DNA from: Methanobacteriota archaeon
GTDB taxonomy: Archaea > Thermoplasmatota > Thermoplasmata > SG8-5 > JAGLSY01
Direction of reading: 5' to 3'
Length of the DNA stretch: 64,000 nt
Assembly (NCBI GenBank): GCA_020696385.1
Contig: JAEHCQ010000001.1
Coordinates: 640,001 to 704,000, forward strand
Part shown: positions 2,643-21,410 of the stretch, piece by piece
How positions within the stretch are numbered: position 1 is the stretch's first letter
How the letters are laid out: each line of letters begins with the position of its first letter
Position numbers and translations under genes: made by a program
The notes under the pieces: model-generated
The model's database searches: none
What the model was told of the DNA's origin: nothing
The model's input: the letters and a program-made list of their open reading frames with translations, nothing else

Positions 2643-3833
2643 ATGGACATTGGAATCGTAGGAAAACCAAATGTAGGCAAATCAACCATGTTCTCAGCAT
2701 TGACACTGGCTAATGCGGAGATCGCTAACTATCCTTTTACAACTGTCGAGCCCAATGTGGGTGTGGCTTATGTTCGGGGGAAATGCCCATGCCAGGAATT
2801 TGAAGTGGCTTGTACACCGAGAAATTCCGAGTGTGAAGGTGGTACCAGGCTGATACCTATCAAGGCCATTGATGTCGCTGGCCTCGTTCCAGGTGCCTGG
2901 GAAGGCAAGGGTATGGGGAACCAGTTCCTGGATGACTTGAGGCAGGCGAGTGTTCTAATTCATATTATCGATGCCAGTGGTGGCACGCTCATAGACGGCA
3001 CACCGTGTAAGATTGGTGAGCATGACCCAATAGATGATATTGAATTCTTAGAGAAAGAGATAATCTATTGGATACGCAATATAATCATGAAGGACTGGAA
3101 GAAGATCAGCAGACAGAGCGTGCTGGTCGGTATCAAGATAGAAAAAGCACTTCATGACAGACTCGCTGGTCTGGCCATATCCGAGATCCAGATAACCAGA
3201 GCATTGCGTGCCGCTGGTCTGGAAGGAAATCCAGATAAATGGAGTGATGACGAGATCCTTAAGCTCGCTGCAGAGATCCAGAAGTCGGGGAAACCAATAA
3301 TCATCGCTGCCAATAAATGCGATATCGCCCCCGATGAGAATATTAAGAAACTCAGGGAGCTGGAAGATAGGACCATTATCATGATATCCGCGGAATATGA
3401 ACTGGCCCTACGAAGGGCGGGCGGATCTGGCCTTATAGATTATGTTCCCGGAGACTCATATTTCAAGATCGTGGATGATTCCAAATTATCCAGTGGGCAG
3501 ATAGCTGGCCTTAAGAAGATCGAGGAATTCATGGCCAAGTTCGATGGAACCGGAGTGCAGCCATGTTTGGAGAAGGCTATATTCGACATTCTGGACCTCA
3601 TTTACGTCTATCCAGTAGAGGATGAGAGCAAACTGACAGATAAAGAAGGTCGAGTTCTCCCGGATGTGCATCTGATGCCGAAAGGCAGTAATGCGAAGGA
3701 TCTGGCATACAAGGTCCACACGGATCTTGGCGATAAGTTCATCAGAGCGATAGATGCTAGGACGAAGAGGGTGATCGGTCAGGATCATGAATTGAGCAAT
3801 TGTGACGTTATCACGATTGTCAGCGGGAGGTAG
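2643..3833 (+). CDS. ychF: Obg-family YchF/OLA1-type NTPase
   Basis: GIVGKPNVGKST, NYPFTT, DVAGLVPGA, NKCD and a C-terminal TGS domain (VHTDLG). Confidence 0.92.
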   Translation: MDIGIVGKPNVGKSTMFSALTLANAEIANYPFTTVEPNVGVAYVRGKCPCQEFEVACTPRNSECEGGTRLIPIKAIDVAGLVPGAWEGKGMGNQFLDDLRQASVLIHIIDASGGTLIDGTPCKIGEHDPIDDIEFLEKEIIYWIRNIIMKDWKKISRQSVLVGIKIEKALHDRLAGLAISEIQITRALRAAGLEGNPDKWSDDEILKLAAEIQKSGKPIIIAANKCDIAPDENIKKLRELEDRTIIMISAEYELALRRAGGSGLIDYVPGDSYFKIVDDSKLSSGQIAGLKKIEEFMAKFDGTGVQPCLEKAIFDILDLIYVYPVEDESKLTDKEGRVLPDVHLMPKGSNAKDLAYKVHTDLGDKFIRAIDARTKRVIGQDHELSNCDVITIVSGR

Positions 3834-3841
3834 GGGACCGC

Positions 3842-6769
3842 ATGTCCCCCGCTTACCCGGAAAGAATAGAAATGATGGGAAGAGAGGATGAAATAAGCAT
3901 CCTTGATAAACATCTATCAAATGCCAGGGATTCAAAGGGATCCGCAGTCTTCCTAACTGGCATTACCGGAATTGGAAAGTCCGTGCTCGTGGATCATTTT
4001 TTGGAAAGCCAGAATACAGACGATATCGAGATAATAAAAGCCTATTCCGGAATAGGGGAGTACAAGCCTTTCAATGTATTCGCCACTGCTTTTGAGGATC
4101 ATCTGTCCGAGCCTTTATTTCGCCCTAAGGACCATGTATCATTTTCCAAGGTATTCGCGATAGACCGTTCAGGTCTATTACTAGCCGAATCCTCGGTGGG
4201 GATGGAGGGGGAGATGGATGCCGATATCTTTGCCGGCATGCTGTCCGCTGTGCAGGATTTCGTCAGGGATTCACTGGACACCTCCATGGATAAGAAGAGC
4301 AGTATCAAGAAGATGGAATATGGAGATATGAGCATACTCATAGAGAACGGAGAGCGAATATTCCTGACCGCGACCTACAAGGGAAAAGGACACCCGGATA
4401 TGAACAGGGTGATGAAAAGTATGATCGGTGAGATCGAGTCAGAGCATGAACATCTGCTCTCTTCATGGAGTGGGAAGATGCAGGATATCGAACCCATCCA
4501 GGAGTATGTGGACAGGCTTTCGTCCATTGGTTTCAAAGTTAGACAGGACGTTGAAGGGTCCACCCTGGAGAAAGAGAGAGTGAGGGTGTCGGATCATCTA
4601 CTTAACAAACTTATACAATTATCAAGAGAAAGAACAGTCGTACTGGCGATAGATAATATTCATCTGGCTGATGAGTCATCGCAATTCGTAATAGATTATA
4701 TTGCGAGAAATATCGATGACAAGAAAATACTGATGCTTTGCTCGGTGAAGCCAGATGCTGAAGGGGGACTTCAGGAACTGATAAAAGGAACGGTGGAGGG
4801 GTCTCGCATGCTTCTACCAGTACTCGAACTGGAGACCAAATATATTGTGAAGATAATCGATAGAATGTTCCCGGACAATGATTTTCCAGATAAGTTCATC
4901 GATCGCATCTGCTCGGAAACAGAGGGGCATCCTCTTTTCCTTATCGAGACACTGGAGTCCATGATCAGGGACAATTGCATAATCGATGAGGGAGGAGGAG
5001 CCAAGCTCGTGAATCAGGATTATAGTCCACCGGATTCTTTGGAATCCATAGTCTTCAGTAGATTGGATCATTTGGATTCCAATGCATTGAGCATGGCGGA
5101 ATTCCTATCATGCATCGGCCAGAGATTCAATATTATCGCCACTGGATCTTTGGAATTTATAAAGGGATCTGACAAGACCATGGATGAACTGGCCAGATCA
5201 GGTCTTATCATAAGTGATGATATCTCCGGAGAATTTGCCAGAACGATGTTCAGGGAAGTGATATACAGTGGCATCGACCAGAGATGGAAAATGAAGTATC
5301 ACAAGATCCTGGGTGAATATTTTGAAGGGGTCTATTGGAACGAACTTGATGATACGGTATACGAAGTGGCTCATCATTATTCGAAGACGAAAGAATACTC
5401 GAAGATCTTTGAATATTCTCTTCGAGGCGGGGAACTGGCCGAAAGCTCCTTCTCACCAAAATTAGCCATAAACCTATATGCTGGGGCTTTGGATTCCCTG
5501 AACAATATCAGATCTGGAGATATTCATGAAAATAGGGTGGAATTGAATGAAAGGCTCGGTGATAATCATACCATAATTGGCAATTTTGATGAAGCTTTGG
5601 CTTGTTATTCAGAGATCTTGAAGGTGTCTGAGGACTACAAAAAGAAAGCCAATGCCTACTATAAAATTGCGATCGTGCATGAGAAAATGGGAGATTATGA
5701 AGAAAGCAAAAAAGTCTGCCAGTCGGGCCTTGAGATTATGAAGGATGATATGAACATAGAGACCACGAGGCTGAAAAGGATGATCGGCCTCGCCCACATG
5801 AGGACGGGGGATTATGAGGGGTCGCTCGAAATCATAAAGGATGTACACAATTTGGCTGTAAAACTTGATAGCCAGACTGACATCGCTCAGGCCACCCACG
5901 ATATGGGATTGATATCATGGTTCAGGGGAGATTATGATGAAGCTTTGGCTTCCTTCAATGAGGCCATATCCGTGAGGGATAAGATAGGGGATATTGTAGG
6001 AAGGGGCAATTCACTGAACAATATCGCGGTCATCTATATGGAAAGAGGAGAGAACAACCGGGCACTGGATATCTTCAAAGAATGCCTGGCCATTGATGAA
6101 AAAAGAGAGGATATCCATAGCCGGGCGGGAACCCTTGATAATATGGGAACCATATACCACACATTGGGAGATCTGGAACTATCAAAGAAATACCATGAAG
6201 AAAGCCTTGAGATATTGAAGAGAATCGGAGACAAGAGCGGCTATTCCTGGTCCCTTGGTAGCATGGCGTACGTATTCCAGAGTTTGGAGGAATACGATAT
6301 GTCATTCTATTATCATAATAAAAGCATTGAATTGTGTAATGAGATAGGTGATAAGCAATTGCTGATCCACAATTATTATGGAATGGCTGACACCTTCATA
6401 GACATGGGAGAATGTGAAGAAGCCCTGAAGTATGCTGGAATGGCTCTGGACCTATCCATCGAACTGGGAGCCAAAAGAGATGAAGGAGTGTGTTACATGA
6501 TCCAGGGGATGGCATACAGGGATATGGGAGATATCGAGAAGGCCGAAGCTTTGTTGGAAAAGTCCAATATATTGATAAACGAAGTGGGTGATGACAGCCT
6601 ACTGGGTATGCTTATTTTCGAGATGGGAGTGATGCAGAAGATAAAGGGAAATACAGAGGAGGCAAGAGCCCTTATCACGAAGGCAAACAAGATCTTCAGC
6701 AAGGCTAGTATGAACACATGGACTGAAAAGACTAAAAAGGCCTTGATAGATATGGGAGAAGGTACATGA
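3842..6769 (+). CDS. STAND-like (AAA_16) NTPase with longin-like insert and C-terminal TPRs
   Basis: GREDE, Walker A GITGIGKS, Walker B VLAIDNIHLADESS, GHPLF, insert motif DADIFAGMLSAVQDFVRDS and TPR repeats. Confidence 0.85.
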   Translation: MSPAYPERIEMMGREDEISILDKHLSNARDSKGSAVFLTGITGIGKSVLVDHFLESQNTDDIEIIKAYSGIGEYKPFNVFATAFEDHLSEPLFRPKDHVSFSKVFAIDRSGLLLAESSVGMEGEMDADIFAGMLSAVQDFVRDSLDTSMDKKSSIKKMEYGDMSILIENGERIFLTATYKGKGHPDMNRVMKSMIGEIESEHEHLLSSWSGKMQDIEPIQEYVDRLSSIGFKVRQDVEGSTLEKERVRVSDHLLNKLIQLSRERTVVLAIDNIHLADESSQFVIDYIARNIDDKKILMLCSVKPDAEGGLQELIKGTVEGSRMLLPVLELETKYIVKIIDRMFPDNDFPDKFIDRICSETEGHPLFLIETLESMIRDNCIIDEGGGAKLVNQDYSPPDSLESIVFSRLDHLDSNALSMAEFLSCIGQRFNIIATGSLEFIKGSDKTMDELARSGLIISDDISGEFARTMFREVIYSGIDQRWKMKYHKILGEYFEGVYWNELDDTVYEVAHHYSKTKEYSKIFEYSLRGGELAESSFSPKLAINLYAGALDSLNNIRSGDIHENRVELNERLGDNHTIIGNFDEALACYSEILKVSEDYKKKANAYYKIAIVHEKMGDYEESKKVCQSGLEIMKDDMNIETTRLKRMIGLAHMRTGDYEGSLEIIKDVHNLAVKLDSQTDIAQATHDMGLISWFRGDYDEALASFNEAISVRDKIGDIVGRGNSLNNIAVIYMERGENNRALDIFKECLAIDEKREDIHSRAGTLDNMGTIYHTLGDLELSKKYHEESLEILKRIGDKSGYSWSLGSMAYVFQSLEEYDMSFYYHNKSIELCNEIGDKQLLIHNYYGMADTFIDMGECEEALKYAGMALDLSIELGAKRDEGVCYMIQGMAYRDMGDIEKAEALLEKSNILINEVGDDSLLGMLIFEMGVMQKIKGNTEEARALITKANKIFSKASMNTWTEKTKKALIDMGEGT

Positions 6770-9231: not shown

Positions 9232-12200
9232 TCATGTTGCATCAAGGTTCATCATAGCTTTACGGCACTTCTCCACCCATAATTTCATGTCCATTTCATC
9301 AAACATTGATAGAGCTTGCTCCACATACTCATGAGCCATATCGAGCTCACCTTTTATCATGTACAGTAAGGCATATTCATAGATGAGCTTAGCCAGCTCC
9401 CTTCTGTATCCTATCTCATCCATGATGTTCTTGGCTTTTTCAAATTCCTCTTCCGCCTTGCTGTAATTTCCCATATCCCTATGAGCCATACCTAGTATAC
9501 GACGGCTCTTACCCTCTTCACGTTGGGACATGGTCTCTATGGAGTTCGCAACAGCTTTCTCCGCATTTTCAAGAGAGTCTTGAGCCTTGCCAAGATCTAT
9601 GTATACTTCGGCAAGACCACAATATGGATATATGGATTCTATTTTATCACCTATTTCCAAAAATATCTTCAAACTACGCTCGTGGAATTCAAGAGCCTTG
9701 GCCAGATCACCCATTGAATGATGAACATTACCTAATCTGATAAGCACTCGGGCAACACCGTGTTTGTCCCCTATGCTTTCCCTTATTTCTAGACTTTGCT
9801 CATAAAGCTTCAGAGACTTGGCCAGATCACCCATTGAATGATGAACATTGCCGACATTGTTCAGGGACAGCGCGATGCCCCATTTATCACCTATTGATTC
9901 CATAATATCAAGGCCATTCTCATAAAATTCCAGTGCCTTTTGCAAATTTCCTGTGAAATTATGCACATTGCCAATATTGCTCAATGACAGTGCGGTGCCT
10001 TGTTTGTCCCCTATCCTCTCTTTTATCTCCAGGCTGCGCTCGTAGAACTCCAAAGACTTGGTCTGCTCCCCCATCTCGTAGTACACTAAGCCCATATTGT
10101 TCAGGGCAGCTGCAATGCCCTGTTTGCCCCCTATCTTTTCCATTATTTCAAGGCAGTTACCAAAATACTCCAATGCCTTGGCCATATTGCTCATAGCATG
10201 GTGCACGTTGCCGATATTGTTCAATGTGGACGCGATACCATGCTTGTCCCCTATTACTTCCATTATCTTCAGGCTTTTCTCATAAAATTCAAGACTATTA
10301 TCATAGTCACCTTTGTACCAGTGAATATTCCCCACAGCTCTGAGCGCATTGCCGACATCCTTCTGGTCTATGCCAGTGTTCTCCGATATCTTTATGGCCT
10401 CTAGAAGTTGAGGCATGGCCTTGTCAAAATCACCCTTTCTCAAATATGGATTGGCCTCATTCATCAATATCCTGGCATATTCCGCAGATCCCTCTTTCAC
10501 CACTTCTTTAGCCTTAGCCAGTATTTTCAAGGCTTCATCAAACTCACCTTTATTTACATAAACATCTCCGATCTTCCTCAATAACCTGGCCTTGACTCCA
10601 TCACTGTCAGTGGCCTCTAATGCGGTATTGAAAAGTTCTAATGATTTAGTATAATTACTGGTAATCGTACTAACACTTCCCATCCTTTCCAAAAGGTCCA
10701 ATCTTTTTCCTTGATGATCATCTATTGATCTTATTTTCAAGAGAGAAGCGAGTGAATCGTCATAAAAGCTAATCGCTTGCTCCAAAGCAAATATATTCTC
10801 TGCTTTCTCACCAGCTCTACAGCAGTACTCGAAACCTTTTTTATGTTCATTGGATCTGGAAAAATATTTGGCCAGATCATAAAGAACCTCTTCTGTCCTA
10901 TTCATATAGGCTATTTCATAATATTCCCCAATACTCTTGTTATAGGACGATTTCCACCTGTCACTGATATCCTTGTATATGATATCCTGGAAGATCGCAT
11001 GGCTGAATTCAGTGATATCATCATTTGAAATAATAATACCACTGTTTTGTAATTTTTTAAATGCCTGGGTAGGATCTTGAACTGCCTTGATAGACATCAT
11101 GATCCGGGTATTGAAGGCCCTTCCAATGCACGATGCATATTCTGCAAGGGCCATGGTCTCGGGGTCAAGATTCTCCAGTCTTCTTTGAATCACTTCATCC
11201 ACCGAGCCAGGTATGGAATAATCCTGGCTGATGATAATGGCACTTCCCCCATCAGTGGAGACATTTCCATCCAGTTTCATCTGTCGTAGAAGTTCTATCA
11301 CGAAGAATGGATTACCATCACAAGCACTGGAGAGGTGTTCTATGAATGATTCGGGAAATTGATGGCCTGGGTACATGGCTTCTACAAGAGATGACACATA
11401 CGTATTCTCGAGTTTGATTAAGGGCAAGAGCACGAAGCTTCCTTCCTTGCTCATGGCCTCCATAGTTGTTTGGAGGGCAATACCTTTTTCCGGTCTTAAG
11501 GTTCCCAGGATCATGATATTCTCGGTCATGATATTTCTAGATAGATAATTCAATACAAATAATGAGGATTCGTCTGCCCAGTGAAGGTCCTCCAGCAAGA
11601 GGATCAAAGGCCTTTCCCCAGATACCGACCTGAGAAGCTCCAATACTTCATCAGCTATCCTTATCCTCTCATTTTCCAACTTCACTCCTTCGAGATCTCT
11701 CCGTATTAGGAATTTGATATCGGCCAGTGATGATATCTTCTCCTGGATCTGAGATATTTTACCCATATTCCCGGACCAGGATTCAAGGATCTCCCCATAT
11801 TCTTCCTCTATTGAATTTACAGCAGCTTTGAGCATTATCTTCATGTCCGGGTGTTCATTACCCTTGAACATGGTAGTGAGATATAGATGGGGGCCATGTT
11901 CAATCATTATCTTCATATCACCATATTCCAATCGTCCCAATCCAGACTTTTGCTTACCCACGATACCGAATGAGTCTTTGATAAAATCCTGGACTGCTGA
12001 AAGCATACCTGCAAATATATCCGCATCGAGATCATTGTCAGTGGACGATGCCTGGGCAATAAGAATACCTGATCTATCTATGGCAAATATTGCGGCGAAT
12101 GAATTGTATTCTTGATCCCGAATAAGAGGATCTGCAATTTCATTTTCGAGGGCTTTGGAAAATGTTAGAAAAGGGTGTATGGTGTCGGAAGAACTGGACC

Positions 12201-12399
12201 CTGTCAATATCTTCACATCTTTGGCCTCAGCATGAAGTAGGAATTCATCAACAAGCCTGGTTTTACCAATTCCAGCCTCACCAGATATAAGAATTGTTGA
12301 CCCTTTTCCAAGGATCGCGTCCTCAAGATTTACTTTCAATAGATCTAATTCATCTTCCCTACCGATCAATTGGATTTGTTGTGGATGAAGAACTTCCAT
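9232..12399 (-). CDS. STAND-like (AAA_16) NTPase with longin-like insert and long TPR array (paralog of 3842..6769)
   Basis: LIGREDEL, GEAGIGKT, LLLLEDLHWADESS, GNPFF, DADIFAGMLSAVQDFIKDSF and regular 40-aa repeats (GDKxGIAxxLNNIGNV). Confidence 0.88.
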   Translation of the reverse strand: MEVLHPQQIQLIGREDELDLLKVNLEDAILGKGSTILISGEAGIGKTRLVDEFLLHAEAKDVKILTGSSSSDTIHPFLTFSKALENEIADPLIRDQEYNSFAAIFAIDRSGILIAQASSTDNDLDADIFAGMLSAVQDFIKDSFGIVGKQKSGLGRLEYGDMKIMIEHGPHLYLTTMFKGNEHPDMKIMLKAAVNSIEEEYGEILESWSGNMGKISQIQEKISSLADIKFLIRRDLEGVKLENERIRIADEVLELLRSVSGERPLILLLEDLHWADESSLFVLNYLSRNIMTENIMILGTLRPEKGIALQTTMEAMSKEGSFVLLPLIKLENTYVSSLVEAMYPGHQFPESFIEHLSSACDGNPFFVIELLRQMKLDGNVSTDGGSAIIISQDYSIPGSVDEVIQRRLENLDPETMALAEYASCIGRAFNTRIMMSIKAVQDPTQAFKKLQNSGIIISNDDITEFSHAIFQDIIYKDISDRWKSSYNKSIGEYYEIAYMNRTEEVLYDLAKYFSRSNEHKKGFEYCCRAGEKAENIFALEQAISFYDDSLASLLKIRSIDDHQGKRLDLLERMGSVSTITSNYTKSLELFNTALEATDSDGVKARLLRKIGDVYVNKGEFDEALKILAKAKEVVKEGSAEYARILMNEANPYLRKGDFDKAMPQLLEAIKISENTGIDQKDVGNALRAVGNIHWYKGDYDNSLEFYEKSLKIMEVIGDKHGIASTLNNIGNVHHAMSNMAKALEYFGNCLEIMEKIGGKQGIAAALNNMGLVYYEMGEQTKSLEFYERSLEIKERIGDKQGTALSLSNIGNVHNFTGNLQKALEFYENGLDIMESIGDKWGIALSLNNVGNVHHSMGDLAKSLKLYEQSLEIRESIGDKHGVARVLIRLGNVHHSMGDLAKALEFHERSLKIFLEIGDKIESIYPYCGLAEVYIDLGKAQDSLENAEKAVANSIETMSQREEGKSRRILGMAHRDMGNYSKAEEEFEKAKNIMDEIGYRRELAKLIYEYALLYMIKGELDMAHEYVEQALSMFDEMDMKLWVEKCRKAMMNLDAT

Positions 12400-13742: not shown

Positions 13743-16700
13743 TTGACTATGATAAGGAAGGTATACGCAATATTGATATCGCTAGCAATGGTGAGTGTAG
13801 TGTTCATGAACATGGTGGTTCTAGGAGCCACAGTACCTCCACCGCCAGATGATATTACAAATGGAGATCAGTTCATCGAGGGTGATTGGGTTGTCACTAC
13901 ACCTGATGACTATTTTGAGAATGAGAATATATATTTGACAGGGAACCTGACAATACCAGCAGGCGAAACCCTGACACTCGTCAATACGACGATATTGATG
14001 AACTGCTCATTCATAGGCCAGTTCCACATAGAGGTTCAAGATGGAGGGACACTCATTATGCAGGATGGGGGAGATGGCTTCATGCCCACAGATATAATGG
14101 ATTCCGATGCCTCACAGCTTACTGTAAATAATACGAACTTCAATGCGTACTTCTGGATTAGACAGAATGCGGTTGTTGACATCCAGAACAGTATTGTCGA
14201 CAATATGGGAGACATTAGCACTCTCAATGGGGAAATGATCGGTGCAAATAATGCTGAGCCAGACTTCGCAATCTGGGCTACGATCACAGATGGAACATTC
14301 GGTGTCTCCATTGATGGTAACTATGCGGATATCGGACCTATTGATTTCACTGGTGTTACCAGCATGAACGATGTCAGATCCCGAATACAGACAGCTATCC
14401 AGGCGATTGGCACTGGCGGTTTTACAAATGCTCAGTGTAATTGGGATGGGAATTCATTCGCAATAACATCCGGAACCGACATTTCATTGAATATCATGGA
14501 ATCATCCGTCAGTGCTCTGGTCACCAACAGCGGTGCCAATGGTACGGACATATCCGGCATCATACCATCATCATACTCTGCAATATTAACTGGTGGCCTG
14601 GCAGTGGATTCCAATCCAGCAAACTGGGCTCCCATTGTCGATGGTAATTTCACAATCACCATAGACGGGGATGCACAGAACATAGGGCCTATTGATTTCA
14701 CCGGAGTTGCAACAATGCTCGATGTGGCCAACCGTATTCAAACAGGATTACAGACAATTGGTACTGGGGGATATATTGGAGCCACTTGTGTTTGGACAGG
14801 TGTGAATTTCATAATCACCTCTGGAAACATCGACCCAGCTCCTACCATAACCGTTCTTGGAACTCCTGGCTTGGGAACTGATCTTTCAGTGCTTACTGAT
14901 TGCGGGGCAAGTGGAATAGTCACAACACCACCAGTTTACTGGTGGATGGACTCCGCAGCTAATGGGATGGAGCTCCCGGTTTTCGAGAGCAACACCGGAA
15001 TTTACATTCAATCAGACAGTGTGGTCATAGAGAACTCAATGATATTTGATAACTACAATGGCCTGATATTCGACAGCTGCTTCCCAGCTTCTCTGGCTTC
15101 CACCATGATTGCTGGCAATGATGGATTCGGTATTGGGATTGGCAATATGACCAATCCTGCCTATGTTGTGAATGGAATTATCAATGATGTTATGTTGTTC
15201 AGCAACACTGGCTCTGGAATCGAGATAGCGGTTCAGGATGTCGTAATAGAGATGTACAATATACATGCTGATGACAACAACCATGGTGTGGAGATAATTT
15301 CCTCCAACACCATCGATGCCACAGTGTATGACTCGATCTTGGAGAACAGTGGCTTCGTAGGCCTTTATCTGAATGCCATGGACACCATGGTGTGCGACAT
15401 AGACAATGTCAACACATCATTCGGAGGTCATGGTATGTACCTTTACGCAGAGAACGCCCTGAATGCCATGATAAGTGATTCCGACATTTGGGGGAACAAT
15501 GCAGACCTATGCGCGTGGCCTGGACCTGCGCCTGCTGCGGCCATGTATCTTGATACTAATAATGGAGAACTTACAGCCATCGTGGAGAGAAACACCATAG
15601 TTGAGAACTGGGGTGTTCAAGATGGAGGCGTTGTGGCCATTGGTATTGATGGGCCTTGGGGTTCACCATCCTCATCCAACACTACATTGACCTTCACTGA
15701 CAATGTCCTTATCGGGAATGGGGATAAATCCACTGGATCGATGATCAACAATTTCGGAGCACAGAACATATTGGATATCGATATGACAGGCAATTATTTC
15801 AGTGGCTCGGATAACTTCAACTGGGCCGAGAACCTGTACATGTATTCCAATGGTAATCTGGAATTGAACTTCGTTGACAATGTAATGGATTGCAATGGGG
15901 ATAAAAACTGGATGGTCCTATGGTATCTGTTATACATCTATGCTGATGATTTTATGAATGTGACCATGAATGATAACTCCTTTGATATCAACCATAGACA
16001 CGTGGACGGGGCTTCTTTCAATGTAGAAGCTGGAGAAACAATGAACTTTGACTTCGTAAACAACATTGTTTATGATGAGTCGGATAGTTCCAACAATAAT
16101 GATGGGGTATTCTACTTTGAGTCAAATAATGGTGATGTTAACCTCAATTTCCAGGAGAGTACTATATATTGTGATATCGATGGGAGCTATATGGATGCAA
16201 TAGTTTATGGTTATGCTGGTGGAGATATGAGTGCATCTTTCATTGATTGCACAATTGGAGGAGAATTTGATTCATTATATCATATATTCTGGTTCAGTGG
16301 GAATGAAAATGCAAGCATAACCTTTGAGAATATCATGGTGGACGTTGATTGCAACGAAGTTCACGAGGGATTGTATATAACTGCGAATGATGTCTTGGAT
16401 GTTACTATAACTGATTGCTTCATCTACATATACAGTGATTCTCTTAAAGAGGCATTCTACTTTGAAAATGCAGACACCATCAATGCCAACTTCATAAGGA
16501 ATGCCATATCATTTACAAATGAACCTGATATGTGGGATTCATTCTATATCAGGAATTGTGAGGATATCAATGTGATCATCATGGATAATTATATTGAGTT
16601 CGATGTGGGTTCATTTCCATACTCATATGAGGGATCTGCCTTCCACTTCGAATGCTCCAACAATCTCACTGCCATAATAAAAAATAATTATCTACCGATA

Positions 16701-19700
16701 GTTGCAGATGAATATCACAGGCGAACATTTGAGTTATACTCTGATGGGAATATCACCGCGACCATAGAGAACAATATCATCATCATCGGAAGTGACAATT
16801 ATTGTAGAGATAATGACAGGTGGGTGTTCTATGTAACGGCCAATGAAAATATTACCCTGGATCTGATCAATAATAATATCACGATCACCGATGCCTGGGT
16901 ATATACTTCATTTTTCTACATTGAGTCATTCGACCAAAACATGGATCTTGGATTTGAGGGTAATGATATCTACATCACTGGAGACCTGATGGATAATTAC
17001 CATGTGGATGATTTCACACAGGATTGGAAACCCGTCTTCGAGATCTATGCCTATAATGGAGATATGGATTTCACCTTTATAGACAATGTTGTTGATATTA
17101 CCTTACACGGAGCGCATTTGTTCGATGTGGAATCTGATAATATGACTTTGACATTTGATAACAATGACATCAATATCCAAAGGTACATGTTCGATGGATT
17201 TGAATTCTTTGCCGATAACAATATGACCGCATCTTTTAGTCAAAACACAATAATCATGACAGATACTATGACCACCACGTACTTATACGAAAATAAAAAG
17301 GACTTCATAGAATTTGATGCAGACAATGGTGACATGACTTTAGATATATCTGGAAACAATATCATAACATATGGGGTCGGTTACTGTATTGATCGAATAT
17401 TCAACATCGATGCGAGTATAGATATAGATATCACGATTGCGGATAATTACATTCAATCAAAAGTGATTGAGCTCAGAGAAGTGTTTGATGTATATGCAAG
17501 TAATGGTGATCTTACCGCGAATATAACTGGGAATGATATTGAAATCGTATCTCTGGGTAGCGACTTCCCAGAATTATATTCCGTATTTAATCTTGAAAGT
17601 AATGACAATGCCGATGTGTTCTTCTCAATGAACAGGTATTATGGAGATGGTCGAATCGGCCCAGACGGATTACTTGGTGTCGATGCCGATACTGGAGATG
17701 TTATTGTATCAGATAATGAGTTCATTGTGGAAAATATAATGGACGATGACGGGTGCTCCTTTGTGAACCTAGATATCGGAAATTTCCTCAATACCACAAT
17801 AGCCAACAATTATTTCGAGTACTCGGAGATGATAGCATCCTTGGACATTGATATTGGAACCTTGATATCCATTGGTAATGAATGGGGCGTACCAGGAAAT
17901 ATCAGTGCTGATCTTCTGGACAATACAATATTGATCAATATTCAGGGCGGAGGCGGACCAACTGGTGGTGGAATAATCAGCATACTTGGTAATGGTGACA
18001 TATATACGGATATCATTGGCAATGACATCAGATACAACCACATTGCCATCTTCTCAAATAGTGCAAACCTTGAAGGAGCCATCACCATCGGTGCTACTGG
18101 CGGATCTGCTTATGCTGATAACATCTATGCCAAAATATCAGACAATACGATAATCGCGGATTTCGATAAAGATGCAGATGCTGGAGGCGGTATCAAGGTG
18201 GTTTCTCAGAATAATATAACTCTTGAGATGAACAACAATATCGTCCAGGGATTATGGGATGAGGTTTACAATGAGGATGATAGGTATGATTTCAGTGTCA
18301 GGATCGGGGAATGGTGCAGTGGTGCCTCTCTGACCCAAAATGTGTTCGCGACCATGAGGGATAACATTTTCGGACCTGGTGGAAAGGCAAGTGCCTTGAA
18401 GATCAATGCCCAGAACATCCTAGAACTTGATATGATTGGTGGCTCAGTGGTAGGAGCCCTATACGGTAACTGGTGCTCAGGCGGGGATGAGATGAACGGA
18501 AACGGGATCACTCTTCTGGCCAACACCATGGATGTTGACATCTCGGGTGTCGATGTCTACGACAACCGCGGAGCTGGAATTTACATCGAGGCTCTGATGG
18601 GCGGGGATGTTGATATCTCTGATTGTGACATCTATAGCAATTACTGGCATGGTATATACCTGGTCAGCCAGAACGGGGTATTGGATGCCACTGGTTCCAT
18701 AGAGAATGTACAGGTTTACGACAATGGTGGTAATTGGAATGGTGACCTTCCAAGTATTGGTAGTGGACTGTTCACGATGAATACGATCATCGACCTGGAG
18801 AGTAGCTTCTTCGACAACCCCGATGCGGAATTCGATCTGGAATTGATCGCTTGCTCCAATGTAACAGCCTTGGACACAATATTTAACAAGAATAAGGTTA
18901 GTGTTGAGGGCAGCGCAGCAAACCTGACCGGAGATATGGCCGAAGGATTCCAGCCTGCCTGGCAGGGTGTGGCTAACGGCTCTTTCAGGATAGGTATCGA
19001 TGGTGTCTTCGCAGATGTCGATGGCCTTGACTTCTCTGGAATAGCAACAATGGATGATGTGGCCAATATCATTGAGAATGGATTGCAAGCTGTAGGAAGC
19101 GGTGGATTCACCAATGCTACCTGTGTTTGGGATGGAATGAGCTTTGTCATAACATCTGGAACCGTAGGAAGACCTTCCACCATCACAGCAGTAACTTCAC
19201 ACAGTGGAGCCATTGGAACGGATATATCTGGTAATGTGGAATCATCGTATTCGGCAACATTGACTGGTGGGCCAGCGGCTGACGGTGATGTACTCAACTG
19301 GAACTCCACGAATGATGGGAGTTTCACCATTTCGATGGACGGTTCACTTTGGAACCTCGCAGGTATTGATTTCACCACAGCCACCACGATGGACGATGTG
19401 GCAACAATAATCCAAACCGCATTGCAGGCAGTGCCATTGACTGGTTTCATTGCTGCAACATGTACATGGAATGGAACTGCCTTTACTATCATGTCCGGAA
19501 CCCAGCGCCCGACCACGAGCATAACGAATGTGACTGCTGGTACTTCAGGAACTGATGTATCGGGATTGATGGATTGCGGTGACAACGGTGTCATCACTAT
19601 CACTCCGATCATCTACTGGATGGCATGCGTTACTGGTGTTACCATCGTGCCCGGAAATTCCTCGGCTCTCACTGTGCAGTGGTATATGCATGTCAAGGCC

Positions 19701-21410
19701 GAGCAGCAGGGAACGGGACTTGGATTGCCAAATGCAACGGTCGAGGTTCGTGATATCAATGGATTGCTTGTAGCATCTGGAATCACAGGAACAGACGGAT
19801 ACGTACACTGGATAACCGGGCAGGAGTACTTCCAGCTGAACAACTCCATAACCATGTACACACCACACACCATTACCGCGTCAAAGGGTGCGTCCAATGG
19901 CAATGTGGTTTCTACCATCGACATGTCCAAAGACGTTATTGTTATACTTAATTATGTAACTGGACCTCCAACAGCAGATGCTGGATCTGACCAAATAGTG
20001 AATGAAGATACGGTCGTGACCTTCGACGGCTCGGGTTCCACTGATGACGTGTTCTGGATAACAAACTGGACATGGGCCTTCATATCGGATAATCAAACTA
20101 TAGAGTTGTATGGAGTCAGCCCGGCCTATATATTCACAGAACCTGGTGAATACAATGTAACATTGACAGTGACTGATTACGAGGGATTCACGAACTCATC
20201 CATAGTCAACATAATTGTTCTTGATGTGACACCACCGATAGCTGTTGCAGGTCCAGATCAAACTGTTGATGAGGATACTGTCGTGACATTCAATGGAACT
20301 GGTTGCACTGACAATGTGGGTATTGTGAACTATACCTGGACATTCATGAATGGTACCCTGCAAACATTGTACGGGGAGTCGCCATCCTATGTATTTACTG
20401 AACCGGGTGTTTATGTCATCACTCTAATAATATTAGATGAGGTAGGCAACAATGCTAATGGCACATTTACAGTAACCGTTCATGATGTGACACCACCAGC
20501 AATAGTTGGAGGTGGACTGACAGAGGCCGAAGGTTCAACAGTGACCTTGGATGCTTCTGCAAGCACGGACAATGTGGGTATTATTGGCTATGAATGGTCC
20601 TTCAATGACGGGGCAAATGATGTCTTGTTAACCGGTGATGTTGTTAACTACACGTTCATGAACATCGGCAACTTTACCTTGACCATTACAGCATGGGATG
20701 CAGCCGGGAACATTGGCACATTGATCACATGGATTAACATTGTTGATATGACAGCACCAGATGTGCTTGTGATCGCCCCTGGAGAGGCATTGGAAGAAGT
20801 TCCTCTCAGTTGGGATCTCATCATCGTATTCACAGAAGAGATGGACAGGATGACTGTTCAGGAAGCTTTTGACATCGATGGAGCGAATGTGAGTGGCTTT
20901 GTTTGGGATGCGTCTGGAAGATATGTCACAATATCATTCGAAGAGTTGGATGAGAACATGACATACACATTCACTGTAGGAGCCAATGCAACAGATATTG
21001 CAGGCAATGTGATGGGGACAGCACACACAGATAGCTTCATGACCATGGAAGCCGCAATCACACCGGGTTCGGTTGATGATGTTGATGATGTTGATGATGA
21101 TGATTCTTCAGACGACATAGCTGACTCAGGCAATGACTTCATGTGGATCCTGATAATCATCATACTGGTGGTCATCATAGTGATCCAGGCAATGATGAAG
21201 GGTAAGAAACCAGAGGATGAAGATATCCCAACATCAGATGATGGAGCAGTAGAACCAGCAGCGGCACCTGTGGCAGAACCAGTTGTTGAGGAAGCACCAG
21301 CTACAGATTCTGAAGCAGCTCCTGAGCCAGTCGCAGAACCCGAGGTCGAGGCAGATATTGCCCCGGAAGAACCAGGTGACATCTCAGCAGATGACCTCGT
21401 ATCTGAGTGA
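13743..21410 (+). CDS. Giant cell-surface protein (beta-helix, four DUF3383-like inserts, three PKD, Ig-like Big_5, C-terminal TM and acidic tail)
   Basis: GGAG before the TTG start, signal peptide, long beta-solenoid repeats, PKD motifs (ADAGSDQIVNEDTVVTFDGSGSTD), Big_5-like FTEEMD...DIAGN and TM WILIIIILVVIIVI. Confidence 0.85.
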   Translation: MTMIRKVYAILISLAMVSVVFMNMVVLGATVPPPPDDITNGDQFIEGDWVVTTPDDYFENENIYLTGNLTIPAGETLTLVNTTILMNCSFIGQFHIEVQDGGTLIMQDGGDGFMPTDIMDSDASQLTVNNTNFNAYFWIRQNAVVDIQNSIVDNMGDISTLNGEMIGANNAEPDFAIWATITDGTFGVSIDGNYADIGPIDFTGVTSMNDVRSRIQTAIQAIGTGGFTNAQCNWDGNSFAITSGTDISLNIMESSVSALVTNSGANGTDISGIIPSSYSAILTGGLAVDSNPANWAPIVDGNFTITIDGDAQNIGPIDFTGVATMLDVANRIQTGLQTIGTGGYIGATCVWTGVNFIITSGNIDPAPTITVLGTPGLGTDLSVLTDCGASGIVTTPPVYWWMDSAANGMELPVFESNTGIYIQSDSVVIENSMIFDNYNGLIFDSCFPASLASTMIAGNDGFGIGIGNMTNPAYVVNGIINDVMLFSNTGSGIEIAVQDVVIEMYNIHADDNNHGVEIISSNTIDATVYDSILENSGFVGLYLNAMDTMVCDIDNVNTSFGGHGMYLYAENALNAMISDSDIWGNNADLCAWPGPAPAAAMYLDTNNGELTAIVERNTIVENWGVQDGGVVAIGIDGPWGSPSSSNTTLTFTDNVLIGNGDKSTGSMINNFGAQNILDIDMTGNYFSGSDNFNWAENLYMYSNGNLELNFVDNVMDCNGDKNWMVLWYLLYIYADDFMNVTMNDNSFDINHRHVDGASFNVEAGETMNFDFVNNIVYDESDSSNNNDGVFYFESNNGDVNLNFQESTIYCDIDGSYMDAIVYGYAGGDMSASFIDCTIGGEFDSLYHIFWFSGNENASITFENIMVDVDCNEVHEGLYITANDVLDVTITDCFIYIYSDSLKEAFYFENADTINANFIRNAISFTNEPDMWDSFYIRNCEDINVIIMDNYIEFDVGSFPYSYEGSAFHFECSNNLTAIIKNNYLPIVADEYHRRTFELYSDGNITATIENNIIIIGSDNYCRDNDRWVFYVTANENITLDLINNNITITDAWVYTSFFYIESFDQNMDLGFEGNDIYITGDLMDNYHVDDFTQDWKPVFEIYAYNGDMDFTFIDNVVDITLHGAHLFDVESDNMTLTFDNNDINIQRYMFDGFEFFADNNMTASFSQNTIIMTDTMTTTYLYENKKDFIEFDADNGDMTLDISGNNIITYGVGYCIDRIFNIDASIDIDITIADNYIQSKVIELREVFDVYASNGDLTANITGNDIEIVSLGSDFPELYSVFNLESNDNADVFFSMNRYYGDGRIGPDGLLGVDADTGDVIVSDNEFIVENIMDDDGCSFVNLDIGNFLNTTIANNYFEYSEMIASLDIDIGTLISIGNEWGVPGNISADLLDNTILINIQGGGGPTGGGIISILGNGDIYTDIIGNDIRYNHIAIFSNSANLEGAITIGATGGSAYADNIYAKISDNTIIADFDKDADAGGGIKVVSQNNITLEMNNNIVQGLWDEVYNEDDRYDFSVRIGEWCSGASLTQNVFATMRDNIFGPGGKASALKINAQNILELDMIGGSVVGALYGNWCSGGDEMNGNGITLLANTMDVDISGVDVYDNRGAGIYIEALMGGDVDISDCDIYSNYWHGIYLVSQNGVLDATGSIENVQVYDNGGNWNGDLPSIGSGLFTMNTIIDLESSFFDNPDAEFDLELIACSNVTALDTIFNKNKVSVEGSAANLTGDMAEGFQPAWQGVANGSFRIGIDGVFADVDGLDFSGIATMDDVANIIENGLQAVGSGGFTNATCVWDGMSFVITSGTVGRPSTITAVTSHSGAIGTDISGNVESSYSATLTGGPAADGDVLNWNSTNDGSFTISMDGSLWNLAGIDFTTATTMDDVATIIQTALQAVPLTGFIAATCTWNGTAFTIMSGTQRPTTSITNVTAGTSGTDVSGLMDCGDNGVITITPIIYWMACVTGVTIVPGNSSALTVQWYMHVKAEQQGTGLGLPNATVEVRDINGLLVASGITGTDGYVHWITGQEYFQLNNSITMYTPHTITASKGASNGNVVSTIDMSKDVIVILNYVTGPPTADAGSDQIVNEDTVVTFDGSGSTDDVFWITNWTWAFISDNQTIELYGVSPAYIFTEPGEYNVTLTVTDYEGFTNSSIVNIIVLDVTPPIAVAGPDQTVDEDTVVTFNGTGCTDNVGIVNYTWTFMNGTLQTLYGESPSYVFTEPGVYVITLIILDEVGNNANGTFTVTVHDVTPPAIVGGGLTEAEGSTVTLDASASTDNVGIIGYEWSFNDGANDVLLTGDVVNYTFMNIGNFTLTITAWDAAGNIGTLITWINIVDMTAPDVLVIAPGEALEEVPLSWDLIIVFTEEMDRMTVQEAFDIDGANVSGFVWDASGRYVTISFEELDENMTYTFTVGANATDIAGNVMGTAHTDSFMTMEAAITPGSVDDVDDVDDDDSSDDIADSGNDFMWILIIIILVVIIVIQAMMKGKKPEDEDIPTSDDGAVEPAAAPVAEPVVEEAPATDSEAAPEPVAEPEVEADIAPEEPGDISADDLVSE

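Follow-up and report, generated by a model that had tools for sequence, protein, structure and literature searches.

A giant protein, predicted to sit on the cell surface, carries four copies of a domain best known from the tails of viruses. It is encoded in a 64,000-nucleotide stretch of DNA (hereafter the window) from a Methanobacteriota archaeon of the order SG8-5, class Thermoplasmata (assembly GCA_020696385.1, contig JAEHCQ010000001.1, positions 640,001 to 704,000 of the forward strand). The gene runs from 13743 to 21410 on the plus strand and, according to the list of open reading frames (ORFs) and the translation, encodes a type-I surface protein of 2555 residues. It contains four modules of ~117 residues in two pairs, at about 14229-14966 and 18918-19649. 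Each module is a copy of the insertion domain (InD) found as a decoration on the outer face of tail sheaths of the XM1/E217 type (DUF3383); it represents an accessory outer domain and not the sheath. Taken as a whole, the data are best explained by InD copies that are arranged as recursive pairs and form outward protrusions on an anchored surface protein, a reading to which we assign a probability of roughly 0.6.

The first pair (array 1 at site 1, 14223..14981; all features of the gene are on the plus strand) is located in a loop of the N-terminal beta-helix-like region. Its outer module W1 (14229..14564; Pfam 36.7 bits, profile positions 90-185) comprises the N-side element, the Trp helix and the core through the motif GTDISG. 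The inner module W2 (14580..14927; Pfam 41.1 bits) was delimited by element order and contains an xLTGG element of its own, the core, GTDLS, a first closing and a strand. It is followed by a second, outer closing (14937..14966), which the order of elements suggests to be the C-terminal piece of W1; compared by eye with the orthologue in the same-genus genome G002, this outer closing is better kept than the inner one. The second pair (array 2 at site 2, 18912..19655) lies where the beta-helix-like body ends, ahead of the following beta-sandwich. Here the outer module W3 (18918..19232; Pfam 49.4 bits) extends from the N-side element through GTDISG and is 89% identical to the corresponding module of the G002 orthologue, and the inner module W4 (19254..19604; Pfam 56.1 bits) is complete, with xLTGG, core, GTDVS, closing and strand. 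The outer closing of array 2 (19614..19649) is read as the C-terminal piece of W3, based on element order and on the confidence values of the W4 model described below. Pairwise identity among the four copies is 35-49%, with 26 invariant columns. The original prediction, made from the bare sequence, had described four modules in two pairs and had quoted the host sequence at the two junctions; the modules and both quoted junction strings are present in the translation of 13743-21410.

To identify the domain, each module was compared singly with Pfam, and all four exceeded the cut-off of PF11863, the DUF3383 family (36.7-56.1 bits vs 34.9; E 3e-9 to 4e-15). The single modules align to positions 88-188 of the 493-position profile only; in the search with the whole protein, four stretches gave E 1.3e-41 and covered positions ~84-188. 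A profile search of the PDB with the four copies retrieved the XM1 gp6 sheath (7kh1, E 1e-11, residues 117-213), E217 gp31 (8env, 7.7e-6) and Pa193 gp32 (9b42, 1.6e-5), while matches to the HPr-like protein Crh (E about 0.4) were taken as chance. An AlphaFold model of W4 alone, built on an alignment of 59 rows of archaeal and viral copies, reached a predicted local distance difference test (pLDDT) value of 88.2 and a predicted TM-score (pTM) of 0.80. In a Foldseek search against BFVD tail sheaths were the top matches (TM 0.64-0.78), and a weaker model of a whole pair gave the same top matches. Over the whole domain the fold agrees with that of the sheath InD. Scores in the ESM Atlas were all below 0.9 and served as leads only. 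In PHROGs neither pair matched a sheath, pair 1 matching one family of unknown function at E 0.0023 and pair 2 nothing, and both pairs with their flanks gave no match in NCBIfam. The likeness to the inserted domain of DUF3383 sheaths that the original prediction had proposed is therefore correct, at a level far above chance.

The InD comprises ~115-130 residues with an alpha/beta fold and may be of the FliD D3 / flagellin outer domain type, an assignment that derives partly from the XM1 paper. That paper describes the InD as a peripheral add-on of the sheath, and the E217 paper (PMC10329688) describes a sheath of three globular domains, one of which is missing from pyocin sheaths. In Table 1 of a further paper (PMC5595980), DUF3383 ranks seventh in frequency among the CDD domains of the hypervariable regions of flagellins (24 cases). 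A canonical copy is composed, in this order, of an xLTGG strand, the Trp helix, a beta-hairpin, a helix, three strands, GTDISG and a [W/F]MDC-type closing with a return strand. With a strand on the N-side and a return strand in the closing, both ends would come together, and the domain would therefore fit a loop. In the W4 model the terminal strands at residues 2-5 and 114-117 were confident. Near-invariant positions across the 59 copies (Gly, Phe, Ser and the GTD motif) appear structural.

Nothing of the sheath beyond this domain was detected. The N- and C-terminal sheath domains were matched neither in the window protein nor in 22 genomes of the order, and all 29 DUF3383 matches in these genomes fell within profile positions 78-206. 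The earlier label "tail-sheath-like" is therefore misleading, as only the accessory insertion domain is present, without a sheath body, and as this domain is promiscuous. That the modules confer a sheath-like polymerising or contractile property is highly improbable: such a property is suggested by the Pfam family name alone, while the domains that make the handshake strands are among those unmatched and the InD of XM1 is peripheral. Because the sheath body is absent, we assign the modules no sheath-like contractile or polymerising role, and the polymerising surface role considered in the original prediction is excluded for the same reason.

The promiscuity of the domain became obvious when its other carriers were classed. 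An exhaustive hidden Markov model search found 1158 representative proteins at E<=1e-3. Pfam classing covered 115 of the 150 carriers listed, with four omitted for size and P0121-P0151 also omitted. Among these 115, 32 had a sheath body too, five contained Phage_tube_2 and six the archaeal-type PKD/Big_5 domains; Phage_cement, Collagen, DUF2793, GH16, Collar and Gly_rich_2 were found in one carrier each. The module and nothing else was recognized in 63, and three showed no family at 1e-5. The domain thus occurs in sheath, tube, cement, fibre, collagen-like and archaeal PKD proteins. On viral contigs, 36 loci carried modules whose identity to the query alignment was 29-49% over the best tblastn segment. 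When viral carrier ORFs were scanned, 5 of 17 matched the whole DUF3383 profile, and 4 of the 12 run on PHROGs matched phrog_205 "tail sheath"; others were tail-fibre/Collar or unassigned proteins.

Several individual carriers are of note. The module is inserted in Phage_tube_2 tail tube proteins in P0038, P0048, P0061, P0082 and P0085, and in a Phage_cement capsid protein of the E217 gp24 / Pam3 gp6 type in P0069. In the full-length DUF3383 sheaths P0006, P0011 and P0033, part of the module is duplicated internally (an extra hairpin, or the stretch from the helix to GTD); the domain therefore duplicates internally at several points, not only before the closing. In a Candidatus Peregrinibacteria metagenome-assembled genome (MAG; locus L023), an ORF of 656 residues has a single module close to its C-terminus, in addition to a weak Kelch motif.

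The two modules of each pair are quite probably nested one inside the other. In single viral copies, one xLTGG-type element precedes the Trp helix and one closing directly follows GTDISG. In the archaeal arrays, an N-side element precedes each of the modules, while closings are missing from the linkers and are stacked after the last module; at the level of sequence, the order of elements is nested. We counted closings with a regular expression in the 60 residues after each array, having excluded L011_949 and P0062 beforehand as duplicates. There were 12 matches in 12 single arrays (0-2 each) and 19 in 10 pairs (1-3 each), the background rate being 0.10 per 60 residues (38 in 22,395 positions). 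Two further single arrays had one closing each, and an array of four modules in the genome G015 had three by the regular expression and a fourth, degenerate one by eye. The number of terminal closings is therefore about 1, 2 and 4 for 1, 2 and 4 modules, as in a nested order, and in the linkers the expression matched in only 2 of 13. The W4 model points in the same direction: the first closing and its strand were confident (pLDDT 83 or more up to residue 120), while the second closing reached values of 59 and 53. As the model orders the inner closing only, one closing would serve the inner module and the other would be left for the outer one.

The distribution of closings also differs among the 25 multi-module arrays found in representative proteins. 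Ten of them have a closing in every linker and are true tandem arrays. In nine, none was found in a linker and one or two at the end; seven of these arrays belong to archaeal giant proteins, one to P0027 and one to P0041. One is the four-module array of G015, and the other five, of sheath-type or other proteins, showed by the regular expression no closing in a linker and at most one at the end.

The alternative would be a plain tandem, with contiguous beads whose closing had degenerated into the linker, and with the terminal WMDC-type elements forming a separate short cap or return strap. We consider this unlikely, even though tandem arrays of the domain do exist elsewhere and the four modules align head to tail, with the linker aligning to the closing region of the inner modules. 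Several further observations weigh against nesting, or against our interpretation more generally. By eye, the linker that precedes the inner module looks like the canonical C-terminus of the XM1 module, and in one archaeal pair, L022/P0010, the linker contains a string like a closing at the place where the N-side element is expected. The regular expression is loose, some of its matches being spurious "LTAS" strings and some real closings being missed, and many of the arrays are orthologous or paralogous, so that the counts are not independent. The model of the whole pair, made from a 9-row alignment, was poor (pLDDT 58.8), its closings falling below 50 and being unplaced. In addition, the 59-copy alignment revealed no conserved residues pointing to a ligand site. 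Pairing of the core Cys with the closing Cys, judged by eye, fits a nested pairing and its alternative equally well. A plain tandem nevertheless leaves unexplained why the number of terminal closings tracks the number of modules and why in real tandem arrays, such as those of P0009 and P0018, a clear closing is retained in each linker; moreover, the W4 model uses one N-side strand and one closing, with the second closing disordered. The nesting proposed in the original prediction thus holds for the order of the flanking elements and for the single-module model, but it was not recovered in the structure predicted for the whole pair.

The positions of the arrays in their host were assessed by comparison with paralogues and orthologues. 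Three paralogous giant ORFs are arranged in tandem ~40-58 kb upstream of the window gene (~25-44 kb upstream of the window start) and contain seven more modules: Pa (C11:595755-600842, 1695 residues, one module), Pb (C11:601010-608002, 2330 residues, three modules) and Pc (C11:608171-614878, 2235 residues, three modules). They have a common signal segment, a PKD/Big_5 stalk and an anchor. A further ORF of 1476 residues (591045-595475) lies directly upstream of Pa. In the alignment the modules of all four proteins occupy the same two sites: site 1 holds none in Pa, one each in Pb and Pc and two in the window gene, while site 2 holds one in Pa and two in each of the others. Pa crosses site 1 with ~10 residues in place of the array, and a homologue in the genome G013 (L074) has a pair at site 1 and an empty site 2. 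The same-genus orthologue in G002 (a frame of 2621 residues) carries both pairs. In G015 (L010, contig C113, ~17899-19278) four modules at site 1 are followed by four closing-type elements, the deepest array seen. Copy number per site therefore changes through gain or loss of whole modules. It had been predicted that removal of each pair would rejoin ordinary host sequence and that relatives might have the inserts absent from these loops; such relatives exist for both sites, Pa being a natural empty form of site 1 and the G013 homologue of site 2, and both arrays are thus inserts in a host protein.

The protein itself is predicted to be a giant surface protein with a type-I anchor, as read from its signal-like N-terminus, its PKD and Big_5 domains and its C-terminal transmembrane helix. 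From the N- to the C-terminus it comprises a hydrophobic signal-like segment, a body of beta-helix-like repeats with the two module arrays, a beta-sandwich, three PKD domains and one Big_5 domain (19965..21060, Pfam; 58-64% identity to the three paralogues), an acidic stalk, the transmembrane helix (21138-21197) and an acidic, Pro-rich tail. Whole-protein Pfam E-values were 5.5e-43 for PKD_4 and 2.5e-10 for Big_5. Hydrophobic windows (mean Kyte-Doolittle value above 2) were found at residues ~7-30 and ~2466-2485 only, and the N-terminal signal was assigned from hydrophobicity alone. No Pfam family exceeded its cut-off in the central stretch of 1300 residues; Beta_helix (PF13229) was matched in the homologues P0025, P0034 and P0046 only, in their N-terminal part.

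On this scaffold, each pair would represent a recursive insertion, in which the chain leaves the host and builds most of the outer module, a complete inner module is then built in the gap ahead of the outer module's closing, and the chain returns through that outer closing. The product would be a hairpin-like protrusion of two domains per site, one on a loop of the beta-helix and the other where the beta-helix body meets the PKD stalk. As the protein has a signal-like segment and a C-terminal membrane anchor, the protrusions would face outward. The odds are about even that the arrays are true recursive self-insertions, two deep here and four deep in G015, that form a rigid hairpin-like protrusion out of a domain exchanged between the tails of tailed viruses and the surface of one archaeal order. 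From the place of the domain on sheaths, tubes, cement proteins and fibres we infer that the modules may act as passive surface decoration, in adhesion or in spacing.

To address the history of the copies, a tree of 21 modules was calculated, which is unrooted; a separate tree of 62 rows, also unrooted, was largely unresolved. Each window module pairs with its counterpart in G002 (93-100% bootstrap). Among the modules of Pc, the inner one at site 2 clusters with W4 (96/88*) and the outer one weakly with W1 (81/80); the two site-2 modules of Pb cluster with each other (89/88). In approximately unbiased (AU) tests, for which the groups were named after the first tree was known, a single clade of W1 and W2 with their orthologues was rejected (p 0.007), while neither a clade of all outer modules (p 0.105) nor one of all inner modules (p 0.101) was rejected. 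As the sisterhood of W1 and W2 was rejected, pair 1 did not arise from a simple local duplication. The predicted grouping of copies 1+3 and 2+4 is compatible with these data, which neither demonstrate nor reject it.

The distribution of the module was determined in MAGs of 59-100% completeness, so that some absences may reflect missing sequence; giant repetitive genes are probably split up in fragmented assemblies. Of 41 genomes, counting that of the window, 9 contained the module: besides the window genome these were 8 of the 21 others of the order, while the 19 genomes of the remaining orders of the class had none. A sample of 300 further genomes of the phylum likewise gave no match. When only the scaffold was used as query (343 residues before site 2), the identical 9 of 41 genomes were obtained, and every scaffold homologue seen has at least one module. 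Among the archaea searched, the whole protein family is thus confined to one order. Since scaffold and module co-occur and every homologue has a module, the domain may be as old as the protein family. A search in the length band of giant proteins yielded only seven homologous proteins. Mean identity of the archaeal modules was 36.0% to viral sheath-type modules and 34.8% to viral non-sheath-type modules, the viral loci having been chosen by likeness to the query, and 38.6% among themselves.

Horizontal arrival in this lineage is the economical reading of this distribution, and a viral origin is plausible. Only tentatively do we consider the fuller scenario of the original prediction, in which the domain was captured from a tailed virus, domesticated and copied as a two-domain cassette between the sites. 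Most of the assignable carriers are virion proteins, similar modules occur at the 36 viral loci, and among the Thermoplasmatota searched the module is found in one order only; the rejection of W1 and W2 as sisters and the grouping of W1 with the outer site-2 module of Pc would also fit copying between sites. Against such a capture, the XM1 authors proposed the opposite, cell-to-phage direction for their phage. The 22 genomes of the order yielded neither a sheath body nor another carrier of DUF3383, the archaeal modules are about as close to viral ones as to each other, the groupings of outer and of inner modules were neither confirmed nor rejected (p 0.105 and 0.101), and the shared distribution of scaffold and module suggests that both may have arisen or arrived together.

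That shared distribution leads to another, somewhat unlikely possibility, namely that the modules are ancestral to the protein family and that the differences between homologues reflect losses and local duplications. The occurrence of at least one module in every scaffold homologue, in the same nine genomes, would agree with this, as would the orthology of the site-2 inner modules of the window gene and Pc and a pair structure that is older than the split from G002. On the other hand, the empty sites join cleanly, site 1 holds anything from 0 to 4 modules, and elsewhere the domain moves between unrelated proteins.

At the genomic level, the gene starts with a TTG at 13743, with an alternative ATG at 13749, and its neighbours encode PolB, a PCC-domain protein, an MFS transporter, a ribonucleotide reductase and an AAA_16-TPR protein. 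A location in a prophage is ruled out by these ordinary chromosomal neighbours, and genes for a tube or baseplate do not surround the gene. In the central body (window 15700-18000), degenerate repeats have start-to-start spacings that are multiples of 177 or 204 nucleotides, and the G+C content is 0.375 at 16001-18000 vs ~0.45 elsewhere. The predicted cytoplasmic tail (window 21198-21407) comprises ~70 residues of low complexity, rich in Glu, Asp, Pro and Ala, and is also present in the paralogues Pb and Pc. On the minus strand, 9232-12399 encodes an AAA_16 ATPase of 1055 residues with a long TPR array; an ORF of 987 residues on the plus strand (3806-6769) has, by eye, a similar N-terminal ATPase motif at its start.

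The domain match itself is not new, as one homologue already carries the NCBI name "DUF3383 family protein, partial [Thermoplasmata archaeon]". Three points are new: that the match is to the mobile insertion domain and nothing more, that an archaeal family of cell-surface proteins uses this domain, and that its copies seem to be arranged recursively. Judged by title and abstract, none of the literature found on DUF3383 concerned archaeal proteins; a link between the tail-sheath insertion domain and FliD was found in the XM1 paper and its preprint only; a search on giant surface proteins of Thermoplasmata gave nothing relevant; and no description of one domain type nesting in itself to such depth was found in the literature searched. 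Our results indicate that two different things are combined under Pfam DUF3383, namely the sheath body and a decoration domain that is separable and mobile. DUF3383 matches on surface proteins of archaea are therefore uninformative about contractile tails. One small fold may connect the decoration of virions with the outer domains of flagella and with a family of archaeal cell-surface proteins. If true, the nesting would be a clean natural case of recursive domain insertion, relevant to protein architecture and engineering, and would show how a loop can grow into a multi-domain stalk while both chain ends stay anchored. We regard this as unusual domain shuffling and not as a new biological system.

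Compared with known systems, the closest are the sheath proteins gp6 of Vibrio phage XM1 (PDB 7kh1/7kjk), gp31 of Pseudomonas phage E217 and Pa193 gp32, which contain the same domain as one copy per sheath subunit on the virion. The outer domains of bacterial flagellar axial proteins (FliD D2-D3 and flagellin D2/D3) are also among the nearest candidates. Unlike in the sheath proteins, the domain occurs here in pairs, and in a relative as a set of four, within a cellular membrane-anchored beta-helix/PKD protein, and the copies appear to be nested. As to the families PF11863 and PHROG 205, the modules pass the Pfam cut-off, yet only ~100 of 493 profile positions are present, and the family name refers to the usual carrier and not to this domain. 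In the tandem arrays of P0008, P0009 and P0018 the same domain is repeated three to five times with its own closing between the copies, whereas the archaeal proteins and the collagen-repeat protein P0027 stack their closings at the end.

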